Of a DNA stretch of 64,000 bases, positions 45,827 through 64,000 are shown piece by piece. A model generated the notes under the pieces. The model made no database searches. It had not been told where the DNA came from and saw only the letters and a list, made by a program, of their open reading frames with translations. Position 1 is the first letter of the stretch. Each line of letters opens with the position of its first letter. The position numbers and the translations under genes are program-made. Source of the stretch: an uncultured Paenibacillaceae bacterium (GTDB taxonomy: Bacteria > Bacillota > Bacilli > Paenibacillales > K13); contig CAJXLT010000006.1 of NCBI GenBank assembly GCA_913056365.1, positions 152,186-216,185 of the forward strand, in the 5' to 3' direction.

Positions 45827-46301
45827 GAGACCACCTCCTTCATAACGGATGTATACTATACCACGGTGAAACCACCGAACGAACGTCTACGCTGATTACA
45901 CCACGAAATGCTAAATTTGTAGTCTGAGTTTGCATTTGGAGGGTGGGGGGCGATCGGTGTTCTCAGTATGTCGTATGGGGAATTGTACAAGTATTAAGTA
46001 GAAAAGCTAAAATGTTTGTCGAATTAAGGAAATGGTTTTAGTATAATAGAAATAAGTATTTTGGATTAAGACTTATTGTCTAGACCAAGGTAGAGAATAC
46101 GGCAATTGTTAGTAGCAAGCAATGGACTTGTGGTACAGGATGGAACGACATCTCGTCTATTATCTTGCCTTGGAAATCCCCAACCTGTAAGAATGAAAGC
46201 ATGTTATCACTACATATAACTTCCCTCTATGGGATGCATGAAGGATGTTCAAGTCCACTAAGCGATCTGTGTAGAATCATTACAGGGAAATGGAGGAGCT
46301 T

Positions 46302-48683
46302 ATGGGAAAAGGAAATCTATCTGAAGAAGATATCAAAGCTAGGTACATTACCCCCGCAATCACTGACGCTGGCTGGGACATTAAGAAACAAGTTAGACTG
46401 GAGTACGCCATTACAGATGGTAGAATCATACTTCGCGGAAATGTAACTGTTAGGGGAAAGAAGAAAAGGGCGGACTATGTTCTTTTTTACAAGAGCAATT
46501 TACCATTAGCCATCGTGGAAGCCAAGGACAATAACCATTCTGTAGGAGCAGGACTGCAACAAGCTATTGGCTATGCCAATGATCTGGATGTGGATTATGT
46601 GTATGCTTCTAATGGTGATGGGTTTGTAGAACAGAACTTAGTTACCGGCGAGGTAAGGGAACTGAAGCTTGAGGAGTTTCCATCACCGGAAGAACTGTAT
46701 CACCGATATTTAATCGATAAGAATATCAATACGGCTGAAGAGAAAGTAATGCTTGAGCCTTATTACTACGTACCAGATTATAAGACACCTCGCTATTTCC
46801 AGCGGGTAGCCATTAATAGAACGGTGAATGCGGTAGCAAAGGGAAGGGATCGTGTTCTACTGGTAAGTGCTACAGGAACCGGCAAAACGTTCATGACGTT
46901 CCAGATTATCTACAGGCTATGGAAGTCCGGCTTGAAGAAAAGAATTCTATTCTTGGCTGACCGGAATGTACTGGTAGACCAGACGATTTCCGGAGATTTC
47001 AAACCTTTTGGCGGCAAGATGACGAAGGTACAGAATAGAAATCTGGATAGCTCCTATGAAATCTATCTGGCTCTGTACCAGCAACTTGCTGGTGATGATG
47101 GAGAAGAAGCTTTCCGACAATTCCAACCGAACTTTTTTGATCTCATTGTCATTGACGAGTGTCATAGAGGAAGTGCCAAAGAAGAATCTGCATGGCGAAA
47201 GATTCTTGACTATTTCTCATCAGCAACTCACATTGGATGTACAGCCACCCCAGTTGAGACCAAAGAGGCATCCAGCTTCACTTATTTTGGTGAGCCTATA
47301 TATGAATATTCTTTGAAACAGGGGATTGATGACGGCTTCTTAGCACCTTATAAAGTCATAAGAATTGGCTTAGATAGAGACCTTGAAGGATACCGACCGG
47401 AAGCCGGTAAGGTGGATAAACACGGCTACGAAATTGAAGATCGAGAATACAATGTGAGAGATTATGATAAAACTTTGGTGATTGATGAGCGAACCAGAGT
47501 CGTAGCATCCAAGATCACAGAGTTTCTAAAGAAGACAGATCGATACAGTAAGACCATTGTATTCTGTGTGGATATAGAACACGCGGAGCGCATGCGACAG
47601 GCACTTATTAATGGAAATAAAGATTTGTATACAGAAAATAATCGATACATCATGCGAATCACCGGTGACAACGATGAAGGAAAAGCTCAACTGGAAAACT
47701 TCATTGATGAAGAAAGTCCTTATCCGGTGATTGCTGTAACTAGTAAGCTCATGACTACCGGTGTGGATGCGAAGATGTGCAAGTTAATTGTGCTGGATAA
47801 TCATTTCGGTGACAACGGTATGACAGAGTTCAAACAGATTATCGGTCGAGGTACACGATTACTTGAAGAATACGGCAAGACTTATTTCACCATCATGGAT
47901 TTTCGTAATGCCAGTAGACTCTTTGCTGACCCTGCCTTCGATGGCAGACCGGAAGTGGTTATTGATCTGGATGGGAATGATCCGGTGGATGAGCCTGAAG
48001 CAGATACAGAAGACAATGAAGGCTATGATCAAAGTGATAGTAATGGTAGTACGAATGAATCCAAAGGTGATTACAACTCAGGAGGAACGGGTGACTTTGA
48101 CGGTGACGGCGATGATAAGCCTCGCAAATATTATGTAGGGGATATTACCGTCAGAGTTCTTTCAGAGAGAGTCCAATATGTCGATAAGGATGGTAAGCTT
48201 ATCACGGAAAGTCTGATTGATTTCACCAAGAAAAACATCCTGCAGCAATATGCCAGGCTGGATGAGTTCTTGAGAACATGGACAGAAGCGGAGAAGAAGC
48301 AAGCCATCATTGATGAATTACAAGACAGCGGTGTACTGCTAGATGCGGTCAGAGATGAACTGGGCAAGACAGACCTGGATGATTTCGATCTCATCTGTCA
48401 CTTGGCATACGATAAAGCACCGTTGACAAAAAAAGAGCGTGCAGAGAATGTGAAGAAGCGTCACTATCTGCACAAGTATTCCGATATGGCCCAGCAGGTT
48501 ATTGAAGCATTGCTGGATAAGTATGCGAATGATGGCATTAGAGAAATTGAGGATACAAAGGTGCTTCAGCTCAAAGAGTTCGCGAGAATTGGGAGTCCAA
48601 TGAAAATAGTCAAAGCCTTCGGTGGAAAGGAAGACTATCTGAAGGCTGTACAGGAACTAGAGAATGAGATTTATTACGCTTAG
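46302..48683 (+). CDS. hsdR: type I restriction endonuclease subunit R
   Basis: The N-terminal PD-(D/E)xK motif is RADYVLFY...VEAKD. Helicase motif I is SATGTGKTF, motif II is VIDECHRG, and motif VI is IIGRGTRL. GGAGGAG precedes the ATG at 46302. Confidence 0.9.
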   Translation: MGKGNLSEEDIKARYITPAITDAGWDIKKQVRLEYAITDGRIILRGNVTVRGKKKRADYVLFYKSNLPLAIVEAKDNNHSVGAGLQQAIGYANDLDVDYVYASNGDGFVEQNLVTGEVRELKLEEFPSPEELYHRYLIDKNINTAEEKVMLEPYYYVPDYKTPRYFQRVAINRTVNAVAKGRDRVLLVSATGTGKTFMTFQIIYRLWKSGLKKRILFLADRNVLVDQTISGDFKPFGGKMTKVQNRNLDSSYEIYLALYQQLAGDDGEEAFRQFQPNFFDLIVIDECHRGSAKEESAWRKILDYFSSATHIGCTATPVETKEASSFTYFGEPIYEYSLKQGIDDGFLAPYKVIRIGLDRDLEGYRPEAGKVDKHGYEIEDREYNVRDYDKTLVIDERTRVVASKITEFLKKTDRYSKTIVFCVDIEHAERMRQALINGNKDLYTENNRYIMRITGDNDEGKAQLENFIDEESPYPVIAVTSKLMTTGVDAKMCKLIVLDNHFGDNGMTEFKQIIGRGTRLLEEYGKTYFTIMDFRNASRLFADPAFDGRPEVVIDLDGNDPVDEPEADTEDNEGYDQSDSNGSTNESKGDYNSGGTGDFDGDGDDKPRKYYVGDITVRVLSERVQYVDKDGKLITESLIDFTKKNILQQYARLDEFLRTWTEAEKKQAIIDELQDSGVLLDAVRDELGKTDLDDFDLICHLAYDKAPLTKKERAENVKKRHYLHKYSDMAQQVIEALLDKYANDGIREIEDTKVLQLKEFARIGSPMKIVKAFGGKEDYLKAVQELENEIYYA

Positions 48684-48719
48684 GACAAAAAACAATAGCA
48701 GACAAGGCAGGTATAGGTT

Positions 48720-50189
48720 ATGGCGATTAGTAATGTTGTCAAGAGAATTCAAGATGTTATGCGCAACGACTCAGGTGTTAATGGAGACGCCCAGAGAATC
48801 GAGCAAATCGTGTGGATTCTCTTCTTGAAAATATATGATGCGAAGGAAGAAGCCTGGGAGCTGTATGATGACAACTACAAGTCTATCATTCCAGAAGGCT
48901 TAAAGTGGAGAGATTGGGCTATTGATCGCAAAGACGGTGAGGCACTTACAGGAGATGCTTTACTTGATTTTGTTAATAATAAGCTGTTTCCTACCCTTAA
49001 GAATGTAGAAATTGATGAAGAAACACCGATGAGTCAAGTCATCGTGAAGTCTGCATTTGAAGATGTCAATAACTATCAAAAGGATGGGGTACTGCTCCGT
49101 CAAGTCATTAATATCATTGATGAGATCGACTTCACAGAGTATAAAGAGCGCCATGAATTCGGTGCAATCTATGAATCATTCCTTAAGGACTTACAGAGCG
49201 CGGGGAATGCCGGTGAATTCTATACGCCAAGAGCTGTTACAGATTTTATGGTGGAGGTGGTCAAGCCAGTATTAGGAGACAGGATAGGGGACTTTGCCTG
49301 CGGTACAGGGGGCTTCTTGACTTCCGTCTTAAAAGCACTGGATAAACAAGTTGGGAATTCTCTCGAAAACAGAGAAATTTATAACAAGTCGGTGTATGGG
49401 ATTGAGAAGAAATCATTGCCGCATATGCTATCTATCACCAATATGCTGATACATGATATTGATGATCCCAACATTCTTCATGGGAATGCATTAGAGGTAG
49501 ATTATAAAGACCTTCGTAAGATGGAGTCTTTTGACGTGATCTTGATGAATCCCCCGTATGGAGGAAGTGAGAAGGAGAGCGTCAAAGTCAACTTCCCAAC
49601 CGAACTGAGAAGTTCTGAAACAGCTGATTTATTCATGAATGTGATCATGTATCGACTGAAGAAGAACGGGCGAGCAGCGGTAATCCTGCCAGACGGATTC
49701 TTGTTTGGTACGGATAATGCCAAATTGAATATTAAGAAGAAACTCTTCAGTGAGTTTAATCTTCACACTGTGATTAGAATGCCTCACAGTGTCTTTGCAC
49801 CATATACGTCAATTAGAACAAATATCCTGTTCTTTGATAATACAGAACCGACAAGAGAAACATGGTTCTATCGTGTGGATATGCCGGAAGGATATAAGAA
49901 TTTCTCTAAGACTAGACCAATGAAGCTGGAGCACTTTAATGATGCTCTCGCTTGGTGGGAGAATCGAGAAGCAATCGAAGTAGATGGCTTCCCGAAAGCG
50001 AAGAAATATACAATCGATGAGATTGAGGGCAGAAGCTATAACATTGACTTATGCGGCTCCCCTAATGAGGAAGAAGTTATCCTAGAACCACTGGATTTGA
50101 TCCAGAAGTATCAAGAAAAGCGTGCTTCCCTCAATGCTGAGATCGACCATGTTCTCGAACAGATTACTTCTAAGCTCGGAGGTAAGTAA
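48720..50189 (+). CDS. hsdM: type I restriction-modification N6-adenine DNA methyltransferase subunit M
   Basis: The HsdM N-terminal domain contains RNDSGVNGDAQRIEQIVWILFLKIYD. The AdoMet motif is DFACGTGGFL and the catalytic motif is NPPYGG. Confidence 0.9.
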   Translation: MAISNVVKRIQDVMRNDSGVNGDAQRIEQIVWILFLKIYDAKEEAWELYDDNYKSIIPEGLKWRDWAIDRKDGEALTGDALLDFVNNKLFPTLKNVEIDEETPMSQVIVKSAFEDVNNYQKDGVLLRQVINIIDEIDFTEYKERHEFGAIYESFLKDLQSAGNAGEFYTPRAVTDFMVEVVKPVLGDRIGDFACGTGGFLTSVLKALDKQVGNSLENREIYNKSVYGIEKKSLPHMLSITNMLIHDIDDPNILHGNALEVDYKDLRKMESFDVILMNPPYGGSEKESVKVNFPTELRSSETADLFMNVIMYRLKKNGRAAVILPDGFLFGTDNAKLNIKKKLFSEFNLHTVIRMPHSVFAPYTSIRTNILFFDNTEPTRETWFYRVDMPEGYKNFSKTRPMKLEHFNDALAWWENREAIEVDGFPKAKKYTIDEIEGRSYNIDLCGSPNEEEVILEPLDLIQKYQEKRASLNAEIDHVLEQITSKLGGK

Positions 50190-50190
50190 G

Positions 50191-51657
50191 ATGAATGCAC
50201 AGGACTTGAAAAATAGTATTCTTCAACTTGCGATCCAAGGGAAGTTGGTTGAGCAGAGAGTAGAAGAGGGAACCGCAAAAGAACTGTTGGAGCAGATTAA
50301 GGCTGAAAAAGAGCAGTTGATAAAAGAAAAGAAGATTAAGAGGGAAAAATCATTGTCAGAAATAACGGCAGATAAAATACCTTTTGATATTCCTGAGAGT
50401 TGGGCATGGGTCAGATTGGGTGAAATTGGAGAAACTAATATCGGTTTAACATATAAACCATCTGATATATCTAATAATGGTACAATTGTTTTGAGGTCGA
50501 GCAATATATTTAACGGTATATTAGTATATGACGACATCGTCAGAGTAGATATGACTATTCCTGAGAATAAAATGTGTAAATCAGGCGACATTTTAATATG
50601 TGCAAGAAACGGTAGTAAAAGACTGGTTGGAAAGGCTGCAATAATCGACAGAGAAGGCATGAGTTTTGGAGCATTTATGGCAATTTATCGGAGTATTTGT
50701 AATAAGTACGTCTTACGTGTAATTCACTCGACTTACTTTAGAAATGCCCTTTTTCCAGAAACAGGTACCACTACAATTAATCAAATTACACAAGACAGTC
50801 TGAGACAGTTCTTATTACCTCTTCCCCCACTAGAAGAACAAAAGCGTATCGTAGCAAAGATCGAAGAATTACTGCCTTTTGTGGAGAAATACGATAAAGC
50901 CTATTCTGAAGTGGAGGAGCTGAATAAAAAGTTCCCGGAGGATATGCAAAAATCGATTTTGCAATATGCTATCCAAGGTAAGCTGGTTGAGCAGCGAGAA
51001 GAAGAGGGAACTGCGGAAGAACTGTATCAGCAGATTCAAAATGAAAAAGCAAAGTTGATTAAGGAAGGTATGCTTAAGAAGCAAAAACAACTGGCTGAAA
51101 TTACAGAAGATGAGATTCCGTTTGATATTCCTGAAAGTTGGAGGTGGGTGAGATTAGGGAATCTATCTGAAAAGATAGGTTCAGGCAGTACACCTACTGG
51201 AGGGAAATCTGTATATAAAGAAAGCGGAATAAAATTTTTGAGATCACAAAATGTTTATAATGATGGATTAAGGTTGGAGAATGTTGCTTATATATCTGAA
51301 GATCAGAACAGGCCAGGAAGTATCGTCAAAGAAAAAGATATCCTATTAAATATTACAGGGGGATCAATTGGGAGATGTGCTTTGGTTCCAGATGGCTTTG
51401 ATATAGCAAATATAAATCAACATGTTATGATTATCAGGAATATATTACCAGGCAATAGGTTTTTTATGCATTATATTTTAATTTCGCCATATGTTCAGTC
51501 AATGATAATGAGTGTACAAGTAGGAGTATCCAGAGAAGGGTTGAGTGCTGAAAAGTTAAAAAACTTTTTGATACCTCTCCCCCCACTGAAAGAACAAATG
51601 CGTATTGTAGCAAAGATTGAAGAGTTAATGCCATACCATAATAAGCTAGTTGATTAG
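50191..51657 (+). CDS. hsdS: type I restriction-modification specificity subunit S (two TRDs)
   Basis: The ATG lies 1 nt after the hsdM stop, with GGAGG upstream. Two variable regions are separated by duplicated conserved helices (LPPLEEQKRIVAKIEELLP and LPPLKEQMRIVAKIEELMP). Confidence 0.9.
   Translation: MNAQDLKNSILQLAIQGKLVEQRVEEGTAKELLEQIKAEKEQLIKEKKIKREKSLSEITADKIPFDIPESWAWVRLGEIGETNIGLTYKPSDISNNGTIVLRSSNIFNGILVYDDIVRVDMTIPENKMCKSGDILICARNGSKRLVGKAAIIDREGMSFGAFMAIYRSICNKYVLRVIHSTYFRNALFPETGTTTINQITQDSLRQFLLPLPPLEEQKRIVAKIEELLPFVEKYDKAYSEVEELNKKFPEDMQKSILQYAIQGKLVEQREEEGTAEELYQQIQNEKAKLIKEGMLKKQKQLAEITEDEIPFDIPESWRWVRLGNLSEKIGSGSTPTGGKSVYKESGIKFLRSQNVYNDGLRLENVAYISEDQNRPGSIVKEKDILLNITGGSIGRCALVPDGFDIANINQHVMIIRNILPGNRFFMHYILISPYVQSMIMSVQVGVSREGLSAEKLKNFLIPLPPLKEQMRIVAKIEELMPYHNKLVD
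50218..51165 (+). repeat. internal direct repeat of hsdS (50218-50427 and 50956-51165), the conserved coiled-coil spacer regions
   Basis: ILQLAIQGKLVEQRVEEGTAKELLEQI...IPFDIPESWAWVRLG matches ILQYAIQGKLVEQREEEGTAEELYQQI...IPFDIPESWRWVRLG. Confidence 0.8.
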
Positions 51658-51983: not shown

Positions 51984-52343
51984 ATGAAAATTACGCTGGA
52001 AATGAGTAGAGGGGCTTATGAAATAGCCAAGAAAGTGTACTCGGGAAGATTAACAAGAACAGAAGGAAAGATCGAGATTAACAAGGCAACAGGGATGAGT
52101 GAAGGCTCAGCGCAGGCGTTCATTGTCATATTTCTAGCCATGATGAATGGAGTGGTATATAAACGAGCCTTCAATAATGATACAAATCAATTTTTGCTCG
52201 AAAGCATCAGAAGGGACTTTGGGGAAGCGTATTTTCGTAAGGCACTGCAAGCAGTGCAAAAACATATCGACTATTATTCCACACTGGGCAGAGGGAATTT
52301 ATCCGGGTTACAGGATATTGTAAATCGTATGCAGAGAACGTAG
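51984..52343 (+). CDS. hypothetical protein (119 aa) downstream of hsdS
   Basis: The ORF begins MKITLEMSRGAYEIAKKVYSG. Its ATG overlaps the TGA of a 9-codon uORF (51958-51987) that has the good SD GGAGGGTGG. I recognised no motif. Confidence 0.5.
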   Translation: MKITLEMSRGAYEIAKKVYSGRLTRTEGKIEINKATGMSEGSAQAFIVIFLAMMNGVVYKRAFNNDTNQFLLESIRRDFGEAYFRKALQAVQKHIDYYSTLGRGNLSGLQDIVNRMQRT

Positions 52344-52418
52344 AATTTTTGTTAATGCTGTAGGAAGATTGGTCATGGAACTTCGGAACCAATGATTATT
52401 ACTTTCGCACATAAAATG

Positions 52419-52586
52419 TCAATATCGTACTTTCTTTTTTCTCAGCCGACTCTCAAGCCGGCACCTTCCAGCTTCCGCATCTTCATCGATCTGAAACCAT
52501 ACTTCTACATCGAAGTTCAGCAGCGGCACGATTAGATTGCCATATACGGCGTAATCCAGATGCTTCAGCCCTTTAAGTCCGCTCAT
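52419..52586 (-). CDS. candidate 55-aa protein (below the ORF-track cut-off)
   Basis: Hand translation gives MSGLKGLKHLDYAVYGNLIVPLLNFDVEVWFQIDEDAEAGRCRLESRLRKKKVRY. GGAGGTGG lies 4 nt before the ATG. Confidence 0.35.
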   Translation of the reverse strand: MSGLKGLKHLDYAVYGNLIVPLLNFDVEVWFQIDEDAEAGRCRLESRLRKKKVRY

Positions 52587-52991
52587 TGCACCACCTCCAA
52601 CTTATTTCATTTTGCAAGGACCGACCTCAGCGGACGGTTCTTTTTCATTTTTTTGAATTCACATCCTGCAGACCTAAACACTACCGCAAGCCCTTTTGCT
52701 GATGTGTTTCTGATGGCTGGAGTATAAGGAGTAAGATCTCAGACAGTATTTTTGATGCTGGACGCCAAGCTTGCCGACCTATGCTTGGTATGCAAATATT
52801 CTACCATTGCGATAGTGCGCAGGGATGTGGAAATATCGGCACATTGTTGTTCTTATACGTACTATTGCATTGATATTTTACTCATACACTCGTATCAAAA
52901 TCAAGTCGTTTCATATACACTTCAACCAAGGAGTGAATGTCACAATGGCTGAGTTGTTACAGCTTAGAAATCAAAGACAGGGGGAACAGAG

Positions 52992-53279
52992 ATGGAATTT
53001 CCATCGTGGTTTCGGCAAGTGGTACAAGGGAGACTGGAAGAGGTGTCTGCACGGATCGAACACCATCCTGACTTGAATGACGTTCGGGCTGAAGCAGACC
53101 AGGCATTCGAATCGTTGTTCGAAGACAAGGATATTGGGCGTATGCCAGAATTTGCAGCCTGGGAGGACAGGCATTATCTGAAACAAGGACTCGTATATGA
53201 AAAGCTGTACTTGCAGGGAATGAAGGATGGTGTTCAGCTTGCTATGGCATTATTCTGTACTTCTTCGTCTGACGATTGA
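52992..53279 (+). CDS. hypothetical protein, DUF6809-like (mobile-element-associated small helical protein)
   Basis: The pattern ...AEADQAFESLFE...LKQGLVYEKLYLQGMKDGVQLAMALF resembles small proteins found next to XRE regulators in Firmicute prophages and ICEs. This rests on recall only. Confidence 0.45.
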   Translation: MEFPSWFRQVVQGRLEEVSARIEHHPDLNDVRAEADQAFESLFEDKDIGRMPEFAAWEDRHYLKQGLVYEKLYLQGMKDGVQLAMALFCTSSSDD

Positions 53280-53412
53280 CCACAAACAGAAAACGTTGAG
53301 TGCAAGGCTGGTATATAATCTGTGATGGAACAGCTGACACAAACCCCAAATGGATGAACAGAGTACCTCCCTGCTCATCCACTTTCATCATGGGTGTCAT
53401 CTCGTGTATGAA

Positions 53413-53691
53413 TCACTCATTCCGTGACCGCTCATATTCCATTTCCACTAGCTTGAAGAACTCAGAAGATTTGATCTTAAGTCCCCGGCATAGTTCGAAA
53501 ATCTTCGTGACGGACGGTTCGTTCCTGCCGACTTCGATCATGGAGATATAGGAGCGGTCCACGTCGCATTCATACGCCAAATCTTCTTGGTTCATGCCTT
53601 GCTTGATCCGAATCGCTTTCACAGTTTTCCCGATTATCTGTTTCATGATAATGGCTAGTTCGCTCAATGTGGACAGCTCCGTTCGTGGCAT
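53413..53691 (-). CDS. XRE-family helix-turn-helix transcriptional regulator
   Basis: IRIKQGMNQEDLAYECDVDRSYISMIEVGRNEPSVTKIFELCRGL is a classic HTH_3 motif. The true start may be the internal ATG at 53646 (MKQIIGK), because the 53691 ATG lies inside the repeated RNA element and is not conserved in the second copy. Confidence 0.8.
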   Translation of the reverse strand: MPRTELSTLSELAIIMKQIIGKTVKAIRIKQGMNQEDLAYECDVDRSYISMIEVGRNEPSVTKIFELCRGLKIKSSEFFKLVEMEYERSRNE

Positions 53692-53866
53692 GTGTGAAGT
53701 GGTTGTTAGATTATTTCCAAAAACAGAAATGACCGCCTCCAGCCAAGGTCGCGGTCATTTCGATCGTACATGTTGAGTTGGTAAGTGCCGACCGCTCTTA
53801 ATGCGGTAGCCGTACCTAATAGGGAATCTGGTTGCCGCCAGGTTCCTTTATTAGTTTAATCATAAC
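53684..53866 (-). ncRNA. structured ~180-nt element, copy 1 (two hairpins plus an intrinsic terminator; candidate leader or sRNA)
   Basis: By eye this copy is about 85-90 percent identical to 55661-55845. On the minus strand there is a hairpin CUAAUAAAGGAACCUGG-CGGCAA-CCAGAUUCCCUAUUAG, a second hairpin around ACCGC-AUUAAGA-GCGGU, and then GAAAUGACCGC...GCGGUCAUUUC followed by UGUUUUU. Confidence 0.55.
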
Positions 53867-53943
53867 TCCGGGAATTCAGTCGCTCTTTAAGATTGCCGAA
53901 TGCCTTCTATACGATGTCCTAGAGCATATACTGTGAAACTATA

Positions 53944-54606
53944 TCAATCTGGATAATGGTTTGAATAGGCAAGATGAGGACTCGTATGCAATCCAATAAC
54001 CTGAGGATACTCTACACCATCATAAGGAGAAGGAGTCGCATTTCCAATGCAAACATAAATCTGCTCATAGGCGGAGGAAATACGTCCATTCCGAAGTATC
54101 TGACCTTCCCATTTACAGTCCTTCACAACAACATTTCCGTTATTTGTATGATGATTGTTCATATCCAATTCTGCAGAACTGAAAATCATCCGTGCCCGAT
54201 GCTTATCATCGTAATGTGTTGAATAATGTGTGAACCTATCCACTTTTACCAAACAAAGACTTCTCCCATTCGCTGCGAAAACATCTGCCAGATCCTCTTC
54301 TCCTTCACAGTGATCCTCCAAGAATTCTAGCAACTCAGTATGGGTCAATGATTCTTCGAAACTCCATTCAATGACGTGAAAATCTTCAGTATGATTCGGA
54401 TAGTCAAACATAGCAGGCTGCTGACCATTGATCTCCCAAACGTCACCGACCCGTACAAACCGCCCATCGATCGTAAGCTCATCCCTTGTCCAAAAGCGAC
54501 CTGCAGAAGTCCTAGATATTGGCCTTATCCATTCTCCATCCTCATTCATCCCAGCAATACAAAACCCATCCCAACTCTTAGTAACAGCTAAAACAATAAA
54601 TTTCAT
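53944..54606 (-). CDS. hypothetical 220-aa protein (possibly of the dual OB-fold type), last gene of the DUF488 cassette
   Basis: The ATG at 54606 (MKFIVLAVTKSWDGFCIAGMNEDGEWIRPIS) is preceded by GGGAGG. The N-terminal CxAG...W(I/V)RP pattern resembles a family annotated as dual OB domain proteins; this is recall and unverified. Confidence 0.6.
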   Translation of the reverse strand: MKFIVLAVTKSWDGFCIAGMNEDGEWIRPISRTSAGRFWTRDELTIDGRFVRVGDVWEINGQQPAMFDYPNHTEDFHVIEWSFEESLTHTELLEFLEDHCEGEEDLADVFAANGRSLCLVKVDRFTHYSTHYDDKHRARMIFSSAELDMNNHHTNNGNVVVKDCKWEGQILRNGRISSAYEQIYVCIGNATPSPYDGVEYPQVIGLHTSPHLAYSNHYPD

Positions 54607-54630
54607 AATCCTTCGACCTCCCATGTAGTT

Positions 54631-55074
54631 TCACACTAAATGGATCGTCCGGATATCCCCCTGAAATTGCTGCAGATACTCCGCTAACAATCGTCGGTGA
54701 CAATGATGTGGTTTATCTTCGCTGCATAAGAAACACGGCTTGCCATCTCCAAGAATCCGGTCAAGATCCTTTTCCACTTTGCGATTTTGCAGTAAATTCA
54801 GATATTTCTTCTCGTACTCTTCCCACCCAATACGTTTTTTCTTAAAATCATTCAGCATTTGTTCCTCAGGAGCCAGATCAAGGAAATGGCTGTACTTTAC
54901 TCCTACCAGTTGCAGAATGTATTCCAAATCGTCCTTCTTCGCAAAACCAGCCAGCTGCGACGTATTATTCAGCCGCGTATCGATCAGATGCTTCACATTT
55001 TCACGTTGAAGTAAATCAACAAATTTGCGTAGCGGCTTCTTAGCAAATCCGATCGTACACAATTCAACAGTCAT
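54631..55074 (-). CDS. DUF488 family protein (canonical type)
   Basis: LCTIGFAKKPLRKFVDLLQRENVKHLIDTRLNNTS matches the DUF488 N-terminal TiGhs...liDvR pattern. The C-terminus has CFLCSEDKPHHCHRRLLAEYL. Confidence 0.75.
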   Translation of the reverse strand: MTVELCTIGFAKKPLRKFVDLLQRENVKHLIDTRLNNTSQLAGFAKKDDLEYILQLVGVKYSHFLDLAPEEQMLNDFKKKRIGWEEYEKKYLNLLQNRKVEKDLDRILGDGKPCFLCSEDKPHHCHRRLLAEYLQQFQGDIRTIHLV

Positions 55075-55084
55075 GTAGAGCCTC

Positions 55085-55528
55085 CTAAAATAGTTTCACT
55101 TGCTCGATTTCCACCGGATTCAGTTCCGTGGATATAACTCCGTACTGAGCATAAAACTCGCCTACTAGTCTGCGGTGACAATACCGGTGATCTTTGCAGA
55201 AGCAGATCAATACCACGTTCTTGCCGTAGATCAATCGCTTATATACTTCACGTAGGGCTCTTACCCTGGTTTCCCATTCCAGCTCTTTCAAAAACCGGCG
55301 CTCATATAGCGGCCACCACTCTCTATAATCCAGCTTATCCTTCCATTCTTGGAGATAAGTTTGGAATAAGTCGGGTGAAGGAGATAGGTCACGAATAATC
55401 TCAGCATCCTTGATCTCAAACCCGGCCCGAGTAATCAGTAATAGGTCAGCGTCAAAATAAACTTTATGCAATCCGTTCGCATTACAGGTATATAGTTTCC
55501 CTTGGGGATTCAGATACTTCGTATTCAA
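55085..55528 (-). CDS. DUF488 family protein (divergent, YeaO-like N-terminus)
   Basis: The C-terminus has VVLICFCKDHRYCHRRLVGEF, and a DLSPSPDLFQTY segment is present. The TTG start lies 8 nt after AGGTGGTG. Confidence 0.65.
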   Translation of the reverse strand: MNTKYLNPQGKLYTCNANGLHKVYFDADLLLITRAGFEIKDAEIIRDLSPSPDLFQTYLQEWKDKLDYREWWPLYERRFLKELEWETRVRALREVYKRLIYGKNVVLICFCKDHRYCHRRLVGEFYAQYGVISTELNPVEIEQVKLF

Positions 55529-55660
55529 GAACTAAACACCACCTAACCCAGAATGAATCCGGAAATACCGTATAAATTCATTTTACCACATTCGACAAGA
55601 CCTTGAGCAACTACTTCATAACTATCTAAAGGCGCGGGAAATTCTTGCGCTCATACTTGT

Positions 55661-55845
55661 CGTGGCGTTTGTGAAGGGGTTGTTCGATTATTTCCAAAAA
55701 CGGAAATGACCGCCCCCCATCCAAGGTTGCGGTCATCTCGATCGTACTTATTGAGTTGGTAAGTGCCGACCGCTCTTCATGCGGTAGCCGTACCTAATGG
55801 GGAATCTGGTGCCAGCCAAGTTCCTTTATTAGTGTAATCATATCT
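55661..55845 (-). ncRNA. structured ~180-nt element, copy 2
   Basis: This copy has the same architecture as 53684-53866. Differences in stems are compensatory or wobble (CCUGG to CUUGG opposite CCAG; GAAAU to GAGAU opposite AUUUC). Loop sequences differ freely. Confidence 0.55.
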
Positions 55846-56043
55846 CATCCCATATATAATATGCAACGATAAAAAAGGATGCTTTACGTGATGTCTGTTC
55901 CATGAAGATATGATGGACAAGTTGACCCAAATACGAAAAAGGTTTGGGGCGGACCCAATGGAGACTATTCATTGTCCGAAGCGAGAGCTCGACCTGCTAC
56001 TTTTTCTCGCAGAAGACGCACGCACCAGCGAAGGTCGCGTCGA

Positions 56044-56496
56044 TTACTGACGACACATTCGTGCTCGATAAGCCTTCGTTCCGCGGACGGCTGTGATCGG
56101 TCGACAGCATTGTTTCGTCTCGCTGCGCTTTCCTTCCTTAGCCGCGAGCGTCTGCATGTCTGCGGTCAGCTGGCTCAGCAGCTGCAGGACCTGCGCCAGC
56201 TCGGCTTGCCTGCGCTCAACTTGATTCGTTTTTTCCCGCAGAAGCTTAACGATTTCTGACAAGGGCATCTTATTCGCCTGGTCGGCTTGGTTGAGTTTTT
56301 TTATTTCCGAGATTGTGAACCCCGCCGCTTGCAGTAGCTTGAGTCTTCCGATATGCTCCACGGCTTCCTCGGAGTAGACGCGGTAGTTGTTCGGACCGCG
56401 CTGGACATGGCGCGTATCGAGCAGTCCTTCGGACTCGTAGTACCGAAGCGTATGAACAGAGCAACCGGTTAGTTGTGTCAGCTGTTGTATGCGCAT
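56044..56496 (-). CDS. MerR-family transcriptional regulator
   Basis: MRIQQLTQLTGCSVHTLRYYESEGLL is a classic MerR HTH. AAGGAG lies 6 nt before the ATG at 56496, and the ORF-track start at 56514 lacks an SD. Confidence 0.85.
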   Translation of the reverse strand: MRIQQLTQLTGCSVHTLRYYESEGLLDTRHVQRGPNNYRVYSEEAVEHIGRLKLLQAAGFTISEIKKLNQADQANKMPLSEIVKLLREKTNQVERRQAELAQVLQLLSQLTADMQTLAAKEGKRSETKQCCRPITAVRGTKAYRARMCRQ

Positions 56497-56521
56497 GTCG
56501 ATCTCCTTTGTCATCTGAGAC

Positions 56522-56560
56522 TTGACCTTCGAGTATGCTCTATAGTTTATACTATACTCG
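56522..56560 (+). promoter_or_regulatory. MerR-type promoter: TTGACC, 20-nt spacer, TATACT, with the dyad CGAGTAT-N17-ATACTCG
   Basis: The -35 TTGACC lies at 56522-56527 and the -10 TATACT at 56548-56553. The inverted repeat arms lie at 56530-56536 and 56554-56560. An over-long spacer is the hallmark of MerR-activated promoters. Confidence 0.55.
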
Positions 56561-56605
56561 TCAACAAGTACCGCGTAAAGAGCGGAACAGGAGAGGGTAT
56601 GAACG

Positions 56606-57457
56606 ATGCTAACACGTAATCATCAAGTTACGCCGATCGGTGAGCGCACATGGATGATCAGCGAATTCGGCAATTCCACGATGTATGTCCTCGAGGGAGC
56701 AGAACGCGCGCTGCTCATTGATACGGGAACGGGGATCGGCGATTTGCAGGGGGTAGTCCGGCAGATCACACAGCTGCCGCTAACCGTCGTCATAACGCAT
56801 GCGCATGTCGACCATGTGTGCGGTGCAGGGCAATTCGACGAAATTTACATTCATCCGGCTGATATTGCTCAGATGAATGAGCTGACGCTGGAGCATCGGC
56901 GATGGTACGCGCGAAGGGCTGGCACGGCGAATGGCAGCTTGGCGGAGTACTCCGTCGAAGAGGATATTGTCGATTGGGGGAAAACGCCTGCGGTCAACCT
57001 GCTGCATGACGGACAGACGTTCGATCTCGGCAGAAGAATCGTGTCCGTGATGGAGACGCCGGGGCATTCGAGAGGATCGGTCGTTTTCTTTGATCCGAAG
57101 CATCGGAATTTATTTTCGGGGGATGCCTGCAGCAGCCTGGTGTTGCTGGATGCGCCACCCGAATTCGCTATGATCGTCACGCCGTCTATAGAGGTGATGA
57201 GTGTCGCCGCTTGTCTGGGCGGGCTGCTGCGAATCAAGGCGCGAGGGCAAGAGTTCGACCGAAATTTCACGGGACATAGCCGTGGGGGAGAGCCGGCATT
57301 GCCGGAGGTGCTGGATGACTTGATCGGCTGCTGTCGTGCCATACTGGACGGCACAATCGAGGACAAGACGTATCCCGATCCAGTCAGAAGCTCGCATGCA
57401 TGCGCGACATACAGGTCGGTGCGCATCGTGTACAACGAGACGGCGCTGCACGATTGA
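56606..57457 (+). CDS. MBL-fold metallo-hydrolase
   Basis: VVITHAHVDHVCGAG contains the HxHxDH motif, and downstream residues include TPGHSRGS. GGAGAGGG precedes the ATG. Confidence 0.85.
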   Translation: MLTRNHQVTPIGERTWMISEFGNSTMYVLEGAERALLIDTGTGIGDLQGVVRQITQLPLTVVITHAHVDHVCGAGQFDEIYIHPADIAQMNELTLEHRRWYARRAGTANGSLAEYSVEEDIVDWGKTPAVNLLHDGQTFDLGRRIVSVMETPGHSRGSVVFFDPKHRNLFSGDACSSLVLLDAPPEFAMIVTPSIEVMSVAACLGGLLRIKARGQEFDRNFTGHSRGGEPALPEVLDDLIGCCRAILDGTIEDKTYPDPVRSSHACATYRSVRIVYNETALHD

Positions 57458-59180: not shown

Positions 59181-62100
59181 ATGAGGCATGTTTTTTATGC
59201 ACCCGATGAAATACCATTGCATTATTTTTACTTTGGTTGGAAAAAAGCAAAAAGTTTTGTAAAACAACAAGGATTCTATGATCCTATTGAAATAAAAGAG
59301 TTTGAACTGGAGTTGGAAAAGAATTTAAGGAAAATTCGGAATAGAATAAGTTCTTTATCGTATGAGATGGCGCCACCTATTGCTTACGGATTTCCAAAAG
59401 GGAGAAAAGATGATCAGTTACGGTTAAGGCCAATGTCAAAGGTTTCATTTATTGATCAAGTTGCTTGGGCTACCATTGTTTTAGTTCTAGGTGAGTGGTT
59501 TGACACGATTAACGATGGTGATGAGGAAGTTTGTGACTTAGAGTGGATGGTTAATTGGAGTTGCAATAATCGTTTGCGCAGAAAGTATTACCCAACTGAT
59601 GATGAAAATAACTTTGTATTTCGGAGGTTGATGGTTAATTATACACACAATGAACTTTACGAAAGCTTTCAACGGAGTCTCCGTTTTCAACGGAAGAAGC
59701 AGGAAGATTATTTTGAACAAATTCTTGATAATTCACCATATGCATATTACGGACAAGCGGACATCACAAAATTTTACCCAAGTCTTCGGATGGATATAGT
59801 TCGTGAAGTATTATTTATTCGTCTGAACCAATTATGTAGTCGTGGAATAACAAGTGTCGAGGTGGTGAAAAAATGGGAAGGGGTACTGTTTAGTCTGTGT
59901 AAAATAAAAACCAATAATAGACATTTATCAGAAATTGAGGTAAAAGCCATCGGAACTGAGACTGTTGACCTACTTATTGATTGTTTACCAACAGGGTTAA
60001 TAGCTTCTGGTTTTTTGGCGAATTGTGTTTTAACCCATTATCTTGATATACCAATAAATGAATTCCGAATAAAAAAAACAAGTGAGGGTAAGGTTACCCA
60101 CTTAACCCGCTATACAGACGATATTATGATTATATCTTCCGATGAGGAGACAATTTATGAGGGCATTCACAAAATCAGGGGCTTACTCAATAGTATTGGT
60201 TTAAGAATGTCGGAAGATAAAACTAGGCCTATATTAAAAGAAGATATGATTAAAAGCATCACTAAAGATATTAAATCTTTATCAACAACTCAGGCTAATG
60301 ACGTTATTGAGCATATCCTGCAGGACTCAATTAAATGTCCTCGCGTAGGTAAATTCGATAATTTACCTAGTTCAACTGCACTAATTGATAAGCTATCACA
60401 ATTAGGTGATCAGCATGTTCGGGCTATGAACCAAAGCGAACTGGAGAAGTATTTAACCGAGCTGATGGAGTTAGTTAATACTGAATTTGCTGCAGATGAG
60501 ATACGTGACGATACTAAATCATCCTTTGCATCTTGGAAAATACGGAAAACTGCCAATGATGCCAGATATCGAGATCTTGATACGAAACAAAGCGTTACTG
60601 AGACACTAAAGCGCATGTATATGAAATATCCTTATAAGTTATCTTTAGTGAGTTGTTACATACTTCACCTCATGGAAATCCCATTTGATGAAAAGGTAGA
60701 AGAATTATTTACTGAGATGCTTAAGTCAGCAAAAAAAAATGATCGACAAGACCAACCAGGTTTTTATGGCTCGTATATGCGTACGCATATTATGTTTTGC
60801 ATAGCTGAAAACTGGAAAAATGTTGGCGCAGAGATTCGGTCTAAGTTGGGAGCTATTATTCAAAGAGAAATAATGGGCTGGTATGATCAGGATACCTACT
60901 TAACGTGGCATGAACAGTATGCAATCTATTGGGCTCTTTCAAATATTTCCATAAACACAAGGGGAGTTCCAATGTTAAATGAAAGTCCAATAGAATTAGT
61001 TAATCGAGCCTATAGGTTGTTTAGAATTATGGATCACGATGTCGAATCAGGTAATGATCCTGTTCTTATAGCACTGATGAGTGAGATATGGCGGAATAAT
61101 CGTCCCAAAAATAAAAGAGAACATGCCACAGAGGATGAAAGTCAATGGATTGGTTGGTTGTGGAAGAGAATTACAAGTAATATGAAAGGTTGGGAATGGA
61201 AGAATGAAGGTCATGGAAGGGTCTGGATTGAGATATCGACCGGGAGAGAAAATGTAATAACCACATATGGATTCAGGAGATTAATGGAACTAGCAGAACT
61301 TCATATAGAAACATTTCTTGAGGATAATAGTATTTCTCATAATGAAGAATATTTTGAGATATCTCCTATCTTTAACGGTGTTATAGATATTCTCAATAAA
61401 TCAGTCACAAAGTGGGTTGAACAATCCAATTCAATGTTTAACGCTCGGTTCTTAAGGGCTATAAGAATGGTTTCAAAAAACTATAAAATAAAAAGCTATC
61501 TAATGAATCGTTTAAGAAATCTCAAGGAAATAGACCGCACATTACTGTCCAAAAAAAATATTATTGGTAACGTTCCGAGTTTTACAAGTGATAAAAATAA
61601 AATAATTCCACTACAAGATTGGGTTGAAATTATAAGTATATTACCTCAAAGGTTAGAGGTTGTCGAAATACCCAAGGAATTGTTGCATCTAACGGAAACA
61701 GAAATAACCCTTTTGTTGATTGAGGTTAGTAAAAGGATTATTGCTGAACTGGATAATCGTGCTAGCCGTGACTCGAATGTGGATATATTCAACAGTCGGA
61801 CACTTTGGTCTAAAACAAGTTTAAATCGTATTGGACTAAGTGTTGAAGACTGGAACAAATGGCGCAATGGAGATCTGTCATTTGGGATTGATTTTACGGA
61901 CGATTTTGTTATTTACTCGGATACTTATTTAAGTGCATGGGCTTATACCAATACTTTCTTCTTAGACGAAGAGTTTTTAATCTGTTACTCATTATCGGTA
62001 CTGCTACTATTACTTATTTCGAAAAAACATATATATTCGGGGGCTGCAGGAATAAAAAGATTGAGAGGGTGGACTAAAATATCTGATGTTATCGCTCATT

Positions 62101-62360
62101 CCGAGTTTCCTTCTACTGTTTTGGCAGAGGTGATAGCAGGATCATTAAATTATCAGAGACCATTCTATAATTATTACGCGGAACACGGGGGTATTGAATT
62201 GCCATTACTGCCATTAGAGAAAGAACCAATTATAAATCTAGCGGATTATCTGCAAGTTTTAGAGGATCATTTGAGTAATGTACAAAGCAGAGTTTTGATT
62301 GGTGATACTGGTTTGCGTGAAATGAGATTTATTGATTTGGATAAAATAGTAAGGGGATGA
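59181..62360 (+). CDS. UG/Abi-type (defence-associated) reverse transcriptase with a long helical C-terminal extension
   Basis: RT motifs occur in order: FPKGRKDDQLRLRPMS, FIDQVAWATIV, YGQADITKFYPSL, LPTGLIASGFLANCVL, RYTDDIMIISS (YxDD) and GLRMSEDKT. About 650 aa of non-RT sequence follows. No intron, retron or LTR features were seen. Confidence 0.8.
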   Translation: MRHVFYAPDEIPLHYFYFGWKKAKSFVKQQGFYDPIEIKEFELELEKNLRKIRNRISSLSYEMAPPIAYGFPKGRKDDQLRLRPMSKVSFIDQVAWATIVLVLGEWFDTINDGDEEVCDLEWMVNWSCNNRLRRKYYPTDDENNFVFRRLMVNYTHNELYESFQRSLRFQRKKQEDYFEQILDNSPYAYYGQADITKFYPSLRMDIVREVLFIRLNQLCSRGITSVEVVKKWEGVLFSLCKIKTNNRHLSEIEVKAIGTETVDLLIDCLPTGLIASGFLANCVLTHYLDIPINEFRIKKTSEGKVTHLTRYTDDIMIISSDEETIYEGIHKIRGLLNSIGLRMSEDKTRPILKEDMIKSITKDIKSLSTTQANDVIEHILQDSIKCPRVGKFDNLPSSTALIDKLSQLGDQHVRAMNQSELEKYLTELMELVNTEFAADEIRDDTKSSFASWKIRKTANDARYRDLDTKQSVTETLKRMYMKYPYKLSLVSCYILHLMEIPFDEKVEELFTEMLKSAKKNDRQDQPGFYGSYMRTHIMFCIAENWKNVGAEIRSKLGAIIQREIMGWYDQDTYLTWHEQYAIYWALSNISINTRGVPMLNESPIELVNRAYRLFRIMDHDVESGNDPVLIALMSEIWRNNRPKNKREHATEDESQWIGWLWKRITSNMKGWEWKNEGHGRVWIEISTGRENVITTYGFRRLMELAELHIETFLEDNSISHNEEYFEISPIFNGVIDILNKSVTKWVEQSNSMFNARFLRAIRMVSKNYKIKSYLMNRLRNLKEIDRTLLSKKNIIGNVPSFTSDKNKIIPLQDWVEIISILPQRLEVVEIPKELLHLTETEITLLLIEVSKRIIAELDNRASRDSNVDIFNSRTLWSKTSLNRIGLSVEDWNKWRNGDLSFGIDFTDDFVIYSDTYLSAWAYTNTFFLDEEFLICYSLSVLLLLLISKKHIYSGAAGIKRLRGWTKISDVIAHSEFPSTVLAEVIAGSLNYQRPFYNYYAEHGGIELPLLPLEKEPIINLADYLQVLEDHLSNVQSRVLIGDTGLREMRFIDLDKIVRG

Positions 62361-63262
62361 CGAGTATGGAGGACGAACTACTTGATAATATTGTAATAAC
62401 ATTAGGACAGTCCAATCATGATCAGCATATACTTGACTATTTGGATCAAGCAAATGGTTATAAATATAAAAATCCTAATGATCAGTTGAATTTATTAGAC
62501 TCTATTCTGCAGACATCTCACCAAGATGGAGCTCAATTTGTTATGTTACCAGAGTTTTTTTTGCCACGTAGGTTCTTGTTTAGTTATATAAAAGAAAGGG
62601 CGATTCGATACCGTAGCATTATTATGGGCGGCTTAGAGTATGGTATGGATCCGAGCCCTGCGCCATCCGGCAAATTCCGTTTAAAGAATGAGGCCTTTGT
62701 TGTAATTCCAGATAATCTATACAAAAAAAATCACATGACAAATGGAAGTGCGACTGTAATCACTGTACCTAAATTACATCCAGCACCAGAGGAAGCGAAA
62801 TTGCTATCTAAAAATGGATATGAATTCGTTAATGGCAACCGAATCTATCATTTTTCCAGTAAGAGATTGGGGAACTTTGCAGTCCTTATATGCTTTGATT
62901 TTCTTAATCTTCCAGTTCAAGCAATCCTACAAAGTCAGATTCAGACCCTCTTTGTGTTAACATATAATATGGATGTTACTGGGTTTATATCAATTGCTGA
63001 AACAGTTCAAAGGTTATTGTTATGCAATGTTGCAATATGCAATACCGGATTCTTCGGAGGGTCAGTAGTTTTTGCACCGATTCGGGAACCACGCCAAAAG
63101 CGGCAAGTGTTACAAATTAATGGAAATGAAATTCACGCTGCGGTTTCTGTACACTTACCAATAAAAGAGGTCTGGAAGGTACAAGATTCAGGTGAAGTAA
63201 ATCACGGAGAGAAAAAATTTTTTCAACTACCACCTGATTTCGGTCGTTTAGCTGCAAGATAG
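62357..63262 (+). CDS. carbon-nitrogen hydrolase (nitrilase superfamily) protein
   Basis: E-K-C triad candidates occur in the expected order and context: FVMLPEFF, VPKLHP and AVLICFDF. The ATG overlaps the RT stop (ATGA). Confidence 0.65.
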   Translation: MTSMEDELLDNIVITLGQSNHDQHILDYLDQANGYKYKNPNDQLNLLDSILQTSHQDGAQFVMLPEFFLPRRFLFSYIKERAIRYRSIIMGGLEYGMDPSPAPSGKFRLKNEAFVVIPDNLYKKNHMTNGSATVITVPKLHPAPEEAKLLSKNGYEFVNGNRIYHFSSKRLGNFAVLICFDFLNLPVQAILQSQIQTLFVLTYNMDVTGFISIAETVQRLLLCNVAICNTGFFGGSVVFAPIREPRQKRQVLQINGNEIHAAVSVHLPIKEVWKVQDSGEVNHGEKKFFQLPPDFGRLAAR

Positions 63263-63527
63263 TAATTGAAAGGATACCCTACATGGTATTTGTTGTCAAA
63301 AAAATGTCGTCAGGAAATGTTATAACTCCTCCGTGTGGCTTTTTGTGATTCTCCGTGTGAGTGTCAATAGCAAGAACTATATATTTCAAAAAACGATGAC
63401 TTACTTTTATGCATTTCGAAGTTTGTCTTCGGGTGGGGTTAATATCTCATTACCAAACAAAATGCATGATATTATTTCCATTAATGAGAAATTGGTACAT
63501 AATAGAAATGCGAAAGGAGAGGTGGTA

Positions 63528-63935
63528 ATGATTCAACACTATAAGCCAATAGATCATATTAAAGTTTCAACTGAGATGGTTGAAGATATTGAGAAGGGAA
63601 TAATAAATTATCTGAAAAGCAATTCTTATATTCACCTAAGTGAAAAAGCATCTCAAATTAAAGAATTTAGATTAAAGTATACAAAAGAAAGTTATGGTAC
63701 TGAGATTGAAAGAGTCTCGGTAGCAATTTCTAAATTTATGGCTCATCAAGAAGCACTATTTAATTTAATGACGAAGGGGAAAATCATGCCTGTTAGGATT
63801 TCTAATGCCCCAAGTATACTGTATAGGTACAGCTTCAAAATTTTTTATGAGGAACAGCGAGGATCGATGACAACATCAGGTGATGTAGAGATATCTATTC
63901 CAATATTCATTCACGAAACGGTTGCGTTGGAATAA
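63528..63935 (+). CDS. hypothetical 135-aa protein downstream of the RT-nitrilase pair
   Basis: A strong SD (AAAGGAGAGGTGG) precedes the ATG at 63528. The ORF-track extension to 63333 lacks an SD. I recognised no motif. Confidence 0.5.
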   Translation: MIQHYKPIDHIKVSTEMVEDIEKGIINYLKSNSYIHLSEKASQIKEFRLKYTKESYGTEIERVSVAISKFMAHQEALFNLMTKGKIMPVRISNAPSILYRYSFKIFYEEQRGSMTTSGDVEISIPIFIHETVALE

Positions 63936-64000
63936 ACTATCATTGGGGGAGAAAACAAGACGGTAATGGGGGAAAGCTTGCGTAGATAATTCGTTACCCC

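Follow-up and report, generated by a model that had tools for sequence, protein, structure and literature searches.

A structured direct repeat brackets a DUF488/DuOB cassette in a Paenibacillaceae defence island

Introduction

Dispersed structured intergenic repeats are known from the Bacillus group. Those of the bcr1 type measure about 150–200 nt, have stable predicted hairpins and show presence or absence between close relatives. Here we describe a structured direct repeat in a 64-kb stretch of DNA from an uncultured Paenibacillaceae bacterium (contig CAJXLT010000006.1 of assembly GCA_913056365.1, positions 152,186 to 216,185; hereafter referred to as the window), where its two copies flank a cassette of DUF488-N3a, DUF488 and DuOB genes, and we compare it with bcr1-type repeats, integron attC arrays, attenuators, integration repeats and insulating terminators. 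A preliminary description, made from the letters alone, had taken the repeat for a structured RNA element of about 180 nt and had offered three readings of it: a new cis-regulatory leader, a small RNA (sRNA) gene duplicated with the cassette, or the recombination scars of a mobile cassette. Our analysis shows that the element is a real, unclassified and lineage-restricted structured repeat. That its copies flank the cassette is better accounted for by island history than by a dedicated regulatory RNA.

Results

Two copies of one structured unit

The direct repeat that had been placed by eye at 53684-53866 and 55661-55845, with 85–90% identity, proved to be real. BLASTN aligned copy B (53684-53868) with copy A (55661-55846) at 89.2% identity across 186 nt (E=8e-67), and the same pair was recovered by repeat finding and by alignment. 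These are the only two full copies in the window, as judged from BLASTN and from a covariance model, R1, built from copies A and B. The copies and their parts are as follows.

55661..55846, minus strand: repeat copy A, unit core plus 45-nt tail; 89% identity to copy B; 175.7 bits with R1
53684..53868, minus strand: repeat copy B; 174.7 bits with R1
55837..55842, minus strand: −10-like box TATGAT of copy A, read from the sequence
55794..55832 (copy A) and 53816..53854 (copy B), minus strand: P1 hairpin, from folding
55759..55793 (copy A) and 53781..53815 (copy B), minus strand: P2 hairpin, ACCGC/GCGGU, 12–13 pairs; the copies differ at one loop base only
55696..55739 (copy A) and 53719..53761 (copy B), minus strand: intrinsic terminator with an 11-bp stem; in copy A, a 15-nt loop and a CGUUUUU tail

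The computed minus-strand fold matches the three parts that the preliminary description had proposed, namely a long hairpin (P1), a second hairpin built on ACCGC/GCGGU (P2) and a terminator. A linker of about 19 nt separates P2 from the terminator, and a tail of about 45 nt, ending in GCCACGA, is kept in both copies. The TATGAT box is also present in copy B (53859-53864). A weak −35 sequence (TTGCAT, 55861-55866; 3/6 match) stands outside the repeat with an 18-nt spacer to the TATGAT of copy A; the promoter scan did not list it. The terminator reads GA(A/G)AUGACCGC...GCGGUCAUUUC and then (U/C)GUUUUU on the minus strand. Its 11-bp stem is 100% paired in both copies and is followed by a U-run on the transcribed strand, as in intrinsic terminators. 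The terminator scan listed the inner part of the copy B hairpin; the full stems exceed its loop limit (≤8 nt).

Compared with dinucleotide shuffles, the minus-strand folds had z-scores of −4.5 (copy B) and −2.7 (copy A). The plus-strand folds were equal or stronger (−5.2 and −2.4), so folding energy alone cannot pick the strand. The U-tract, in contrast, adjoins the stem on the minus strand only. We assigned the unit to the minus strand because of this U-tract, two wobble changes in the stems (see below) and the orientation of the neighbouring genes. On the plus strand of copy B, the complement of P1 (53816-53854) appeared in the scan as terminator-like, with at least 12 pairs and a T-rich tail; by way of this complement, the copy B unit could stop transcription from either direction.

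Substitutions between the copies spare the stems

With two sequences available, we compared where the copies differ. Of the 36 base pairs, 34 are invariant and two are changed on one side; none is changed on both sides, so that there is no compensatory double change. The differences occupy 2 of the 72 paired columns versus 13 of the 69 unpaired ones (Fisher p=0.002), and the bias persists at p=0.019 once the nearly invariant P2 block is excluded. Both stem changes stay paired on the minus strand (C-G to U-G and A-U to G-U), whereas on the plus strand they would produce A·C and C·A mismatches. The earlier statement that substitutions fall in loops or preserve pairing is therefore borne out at both changed stem columns. 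It fails at one point: in copy A, a U to C change at alignment column 36 abolishes one A-U pair of the P1 outer helix, at its inner end. In the linker, 2 of 19 positions differ.

The stem-sparing substitutions fit a retained function of the hairpins, and given this pattern an RNA-level role, be it that of a terminator, an attenuator or an sRNA, is still plausible. The unit is a reasonable candidate for a small transcript or a terminator. A leader peptide was considered and rejected: neither copy interrupts a 15-codon open reading frame (ORF) that starts at the ATG of TATGAT, yet five codons are altered, none of them synonymously, and no usable ribosome-binding-site spacing is present.

The preliminary description had also pointed to a 1:2 / 2:3 / 3:4 arrangement of segments that would allow an antiterminator. 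The complementarity of GCGGUC with GACCGC exists in both copies. Forcing this pairing in the full transcript costs 10–13 kcal/mol; only in the nascent transcript, before the 3′ arm of the terminator is made, does the alternative come within 1 kcal/mol of the P2 fold.

The cassette and the XRE gene occur elsewhere without the unit

Copy A lies upstream of the cassette, and copy B lies between the cassette and a gene for an XRE protein. These neighbours were assigned as follows.

53918..55644, minus strand: portable cassette with its own promoter, PADLOC candidate PDC-M45 (Pfam, PADLOC)
55085-55528: DUF488-N3a (Pfam/PADLOC)
54631-55074: DUF488 (Pfam/PADLOC)
53944-54624: DuOB (Pfam/PADLOC)
53413..53667, minus strand: XRE/HTH_3 gene, 84 aa, TTG start (53667), from domain search and orthologue comparison

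We compared this arrangement with related loci, which are designated by L numbers. The nearest relative is L138, a Logan contig of 3.1 kb (sample SRR31893364), which has the same cassette-to-XRE order as the window and an XRE 90% identical to that of the window. The cassette DNA is 94.7% identical to L138 207-1965 and, over window positions 55644-53918, 92.5% identical to L147 9885-11605. An extended −10 promoter, TGTGGTAAAAT (55580-55590), lies downstream of terminator A and is kept in both L138 and L147.

In L147/148, a Tn7-like element, the cassette adjoins TnsD/TniQ, Gabija-like and CBASS-like genes and has its own terminator after DuOB. Unlike L147, the window and L138 have no terminator of the cassette's own before unit B. 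In L119-122 the cassette (L119 10001-11581) is situated between Hachiman-like genes and a MobL/type IV secretion system conjugation module; the DUF488-N3a protein is 86% identical, and homology is limited to the coding DNA. No unit stands beside the cassette in L147/148 or in L119-122, and it is likewise absent from eight more distant metagenomic loci; in all, 19 loci with the cassette or a DUF488-N3a relative lack it. In three other settings (L119-122, L147/148 and site B of L138, described below) the cassette is found but not the unit; the unit is not a component of the cassette.

Copy B runs right up to the GGAG ribosome-binding site of the XRE gene, whose start codon lies 17 nt beyond that copy. 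The 13 loci with XRE orthologues (L125-L137) all lack the unit upstream of XRE; what they share there is a conserved promoter region with no relation to it. This native upstream region, conserved in L125-L138, is missing in the window. Copy B stands next to XRE because the native XRE promoter was lost in a lineage-specific deletion; the unit is not part of the XRE gene.

The XRE protein itself (84–85 aa) is 75–90% identical in amino acid sequence across Paenibacillus, Cohnella and relatives. Its orthologues lie near rlmH, and the defence genes next to them vary strongly, including GmrSD, Mrr, DAC/DACNH, AAA_15/DUF3696 and patatin. By these comparisons, the gene looks like the anchor of a defence-island hotspot. 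The region of about 1 kb downstream of XRE (52343-53413) has short ORFs only, one of which (95 aa, 52992-53279, plus strand) has 88% DNA identity in L138.

The repeated unit extends into an unstructured segment

The junction between the cassette and XRE in L138 (site B) reads GGATGAGGTATGATTAAAC-GAATTAAAC-CGCCACGACAAGCATGAGCGCAAGAAG (shorter extract: TATGATTAAAC-GAATTAAAC-CGCCACGAC). It consists of the 5′ end of the unit with TATGAT, 9 nt, the last 8 nt of the unit and a flank like that after copy A of the window; the core, about 165 nt, is missing. Five of the 9 nt agree with the start of P1, which fits a microhomology deletion of the core in L138. It is possible, alternatively, that the core was inserted in the lineage of the window rather than deleted in L138.

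Three features follow the junction in L138: a segment that we call S, an ORF of 56 aa in the opposite orientation and the native promoter of XRE. A further S copy, interrupted by the end of the contig, precedes the L138 cassette. Two S copies, 88.7% identical over 133 nt, therefore flank the cassette in L138. Their divergence equals that of the unit copies in the window, an indication that a longer unit was duplicated once, long ago. In the window itself, S is represented by 18 nt left after copy A (55660-55643) and by nothing after copy B; L138 has about 190 nt more. A further S copy lies at the edge of the window.

55643..55660, minus strand: S remnant of 18 nt after copy A, CAAGTATGAGCGCAAGAA; window 55670-55642 is 93% identical to L138 2038-2066
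63921..64000, minus strand: third, partial S copy; identity of 90% (81 nt) with L138 2130-2209 and of 86.5% (52 nt) with L138 78-128

The third copy ends at the window edge. At its other end it adjoins the stop codon of ORF 63333-63935 (plus strand), the last one behind a set of reverse transcriptase genes of the DRT type. A remnant of a neighbouring gene's 3′ end, 'CEVALE*', which stands beside the downstream S copy of L138 (S_B), matches the end of this ORF at the third S copy. The third copy would imply a further unit just past base 64000, and with it the unit recurs at module borders. Copies of the unit or of S are found at no fewer than three such borders, one pair bracketing the block of DRT, Mrr, metallo-beta-lactamase and MerR genes and another the DUF488 cassette. 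Taken together, the comparisons suggest that the repeated unit is about 340 nt long, comprising the box, hairpins, terminator, tail and S, and is thus longer than had been seen from the window alone.

Two other interpretations of S were discarded. As a structured RNA it had a fold z-score of +1.2 and no Rfam match, and as a coding sequence it has indels between its copies and no open frame. The 56-aa ORF of L138 (2219-2389, minus strand) has one hydrophobic helix and a charged tail and is convergent with TATGAT and S. It has no PADLOC match and is absent from the window. Together with TATGAT/S, its arrangement resembles a type I toxin-antitoxin layout.

Searches for homologues and known families

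The preliminary description had found no match to any known riboswitch or sRNA family, and the Rfam 15 scan agrees: no family reached its gathering score in the whole window, and none was returned at E≤10 for 52500-57000. When 211 nt were scanned, the best matches were RatA (20.9 bits, gathering score 49, E=1.6; seen for copy B alone) and AbsR28 (E=0.51), both well short of threshold and at chance level. BLASTN in distant mode found no match among plasmids and phages. Patterns derived from P1, P2, the terminator, the junction and S found nothing in viral contigs, save one 18-nt chance match, and a 20-mer of the P2 block had no exact match among metagenome contigs. The covariance model found no homologue across 29 related loci. 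Against genome contigs, the pattern CGGCTACCGCN{5,9}GCGGTCGGCA gave at least 118 chance matches in high-GC genomes and no real homologue among the matches listed. The linker, when compared with the whole window for a target in trans, matched its own complement only. A full-text literature search with the element sequence returned no paper, and literature on PDC-M45, on DUF488 with DuOB and on DUF488 with phage held nothing relevant to the cassette or the element.

The proposal of a new conserved cis-regulatory leader or riboswitch accordingly finds no support: the searches gave no homologue, and the unit is absent at the 13 XRE orthologues and in the three other contexts of the cassette.

The surrounding defence island

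The region is a defence island. In addition to the genes described above, it contains the following.

46290-51657: hsdR/M/S, type I restriction-modification
59181-62360: reverse transcriptase of the DRT type, class-1-like; best PADLOC matches RT_UG6 and Drt1a
62357-63262: nitrilase associated with the reverse transcriptase, as a separate gene (E=2e-49)
63333-63935, plus strand: unannotated ORF of 200 aa

Further island genes encode MerR, a metallo-beta-lactamase-fold protein and an Mrr-type nuclease. No recombinase, integrase or transposase is found among the annotated ORFs of the window. At 6371-31234 there are four very long ORFs (1165–2796 aa) for SLH-domain surface proteins with LRR, fn3, cadherin-like and Ig-like repeats. 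None of them is a biosynthetic megasynthase.

Discussion

Origin and role of the repeat

The explanation that we favour, and to which we give about an even chance, is that the repeat is a duplicated resident intergenic unit of about 340 nt that now serves mainly as a terminator and insulator. The unit would be composed of the −10-like box, a segment of about 135 nt with the two hairpins and the minus-strand terminator, the 45-nt tail and the unstructured S. From the comparative anatomy of the loci, we infer that the cassette recombined into, or next to, a resident copy of the unit, and that the unit was duplicated in the process. Later deletions would have trimmed S at both sites in the window, fused copy B onto the ribosome-binding site of XRE and removed the hairpin core at site B of L138. 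Each non-coding copy would mainly serve to halt minus-strand transcription where one defence module adjoins the next. Terminator A would stop transcripts coming from the merR side, or from the weak promoter of the unit, ahead of the cassette promoter; terminator B, as the sole terminator behind the cassette operon in the window and in L138, would gate read-through into the promoterless XRE gene. The safest functional statement, made from the predicted structures, is that each copy probably supplies an intrinsic terminator between modules. Among the readings offered at the outset, that of recombination scars of a mobile cassette comes closest to the comparative data.

Several points weigh against this explanation. 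A plain terminator needs no P1, no P2 and no conserved 45-nt tail, and the TATGAT box together with the 1:2 / 2:3 / 3:4 complementarity fits a dedicated RNA gene or attenuator better. The two copies have diverged by 11%, as much as the unstructured S repeats of L138 (11.3%), so that selection is visible only in the placement of the changes; gene conversion could add to the stem-sparing pattern, P2 being a nearly invariant patch of 62 nt. The duplication is a proposed event, and no recombinase is in view among the annotated ORFs. Moreover, the absence of homologues holds for the loci and collections searched only, and the genome-contig collection was effectively left uncovered by a GC-rich pattern.

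An attenuator or trans-acting role of the unit is possible. As a cis-acting attenuator or riboswitch-like leader, the unit would use P2 as an anti-antiterminator, its 3′ arm GCGGUC being free to pair with the 5′ arm GACCGC of the terminator, and a ligand, protein or RNA would set read-through into the DUF488 operon at copy A and into XRE at copy B. The alternative pairing, close in energy to the P2 fold during synthesis in both copies, is what such a switch would use; the stems are spared by substitutions; and XRE, which lies 17 nt behind unit B without a promoter of its own, needs read-through. We nevertheless regard this attenuator as unlikely. None of the orthologous XRE genes and none of the other cassette copies examined is preceded by the unit, the cassette has an extended −10 promoter downstream of terminator A, and the juxtaposition with XRE stems from a lineage-specific deletion. 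Nor does the nearest relative, L138, have the core at site B, and neither an Rfam match nor a compensatory change was found. An independent sRNA gene of about 135 nt (5′ hairpin, P2, linker and terminator), duplicated and specifying a trans-acting or antitoxin-like regulator, is in our view doubtful to a similar degree. Its layout would be that of Gram-positive sRNAs: TATGAT occurs at three sites (window A and B, L138 B), P1 starts a few bases from the predicted transcript start, and the terminator has its U-tract. In L138 the box points into S and is convergent with the 56-aa ORF, which is type I toxin-like. The −35 sequence, however, is weak in copy A and missing in copy B; the linker, which differs between the copies at 2 of 19 positions, has no convincing target in the window beyond its own complement; and the RatA match is at chance level, with no homologues in the searched collections.

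The repeat could also act as DNA, either as a dispersed intergenic repeat like a miniature inverted-repeat transposable element (MITE) or as an att/attC-like recombination site for the exchange of defence modules. Close relatives differ at one site in whether they have the core (the window versus site B of L138), copies of the unit or of S occupy three module borders, and the hairpins fold equally well on either strand, all of which such an element would account for. On the other hand, inspection of junctions A and B against L138 revealed neither terminal inverted repeats nor a target-site duplication of the core. Repeat finding, likewise, gave no inverted repeat linking the two ends of the unit. 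These results also speak against the end of an insertion sequence or MITE, which had been raised earlier. The 9 nt in L138 that resemble the start of P1 fit a microhomology deletion, the annotated ORFs include no integrase or transposase, the integron core GTTRRRY occurs in copy B only, and full copies number just two in 64 kb. A DNA element is improbable on balance, about as much so as either RNA reading. More remote still is a bolder version: a cassette-array-like hotspot for defence genes by the conserved XRE gene in Paenibacillus, with the structured unit of about 340 nt as its junction element. Each module (the DRT-nitrilase/Mrr block and the DUF488/DuOB cassette) would be bracketed by a copy of the unit, and the hairpins would serve either as an attC-like recombination site where modules are exchanged or, across unrelated defence modules, as a common attenuator that responds to infection.

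If the modest explanation of a duplicated terminator unit is true, the element is a lineage-specific terminator and repeat unit and not a new RNA class. It would then record the splicing of a portable PDC-M45-like candidate defence cassette into a hotspot, and it would help to reconstruct how the island was assembled. If module borders in many Paenibacillus islands prove to have the unit, or if it gates defence genes, this would point to a recombination or regulatory junction that defence modules share in Firmicutes.

Comparison with known systems

The unit does not fit an integron attC array: the annotated ORFs of the window include no integrase, the core motif (RYYYAAC / GTTRRRY) is present in copy B only, and the bracketed modules are multi-gene and have promoters. 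The unit shares with the attenuators and riboswitch expression platforms of Firmicutes its four segments in a 1:2 / 2:3 / 3:4 arrangement and nascent alternatives that are nearly isoenergetic; it differs from them in having no conserved sensor domain, no conservation across orthologous leaders and no Rfam match. The bcr1-type repeats are like it in size, hairpins and presence or absence between relatives, but the unit has no TTTAT-type target duplication and no terminal repeats.

The repeats that result from Campbell-type or att-site integration offer a closer parallel. Here, too, diverged direct repeats, in direct orientation, flank a module that is found elsewhere without them (L147/148 and L119-122), and L138 has flanking S repeats. 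More copies stand at neighbouring borders, and in L138 the repeat is accompanied by CEVALE*, left over from the 3′ end of a neighbouring gene. The differences are that no integrase is in view and that the unit, about 340 nt long, has ragged, deletion-shaped borders and no fixed core; a precise empty site, that is, a relative with a single uninterrupted unit, was not among the loci retrieved. Compared with intrinsic terminators that act as intergenic insulators, the unit has two additional conserved hairpins, a −10-like box and a 45-nt tail, its 15-nt loop is long, and the whole package has been duplicated. What it has in common with these insulators is an 11-bp GC-rich stem followed by a U-tract on the coding strand, a position between transcription units and, behind the cassette operon, the place of the sole terminator.

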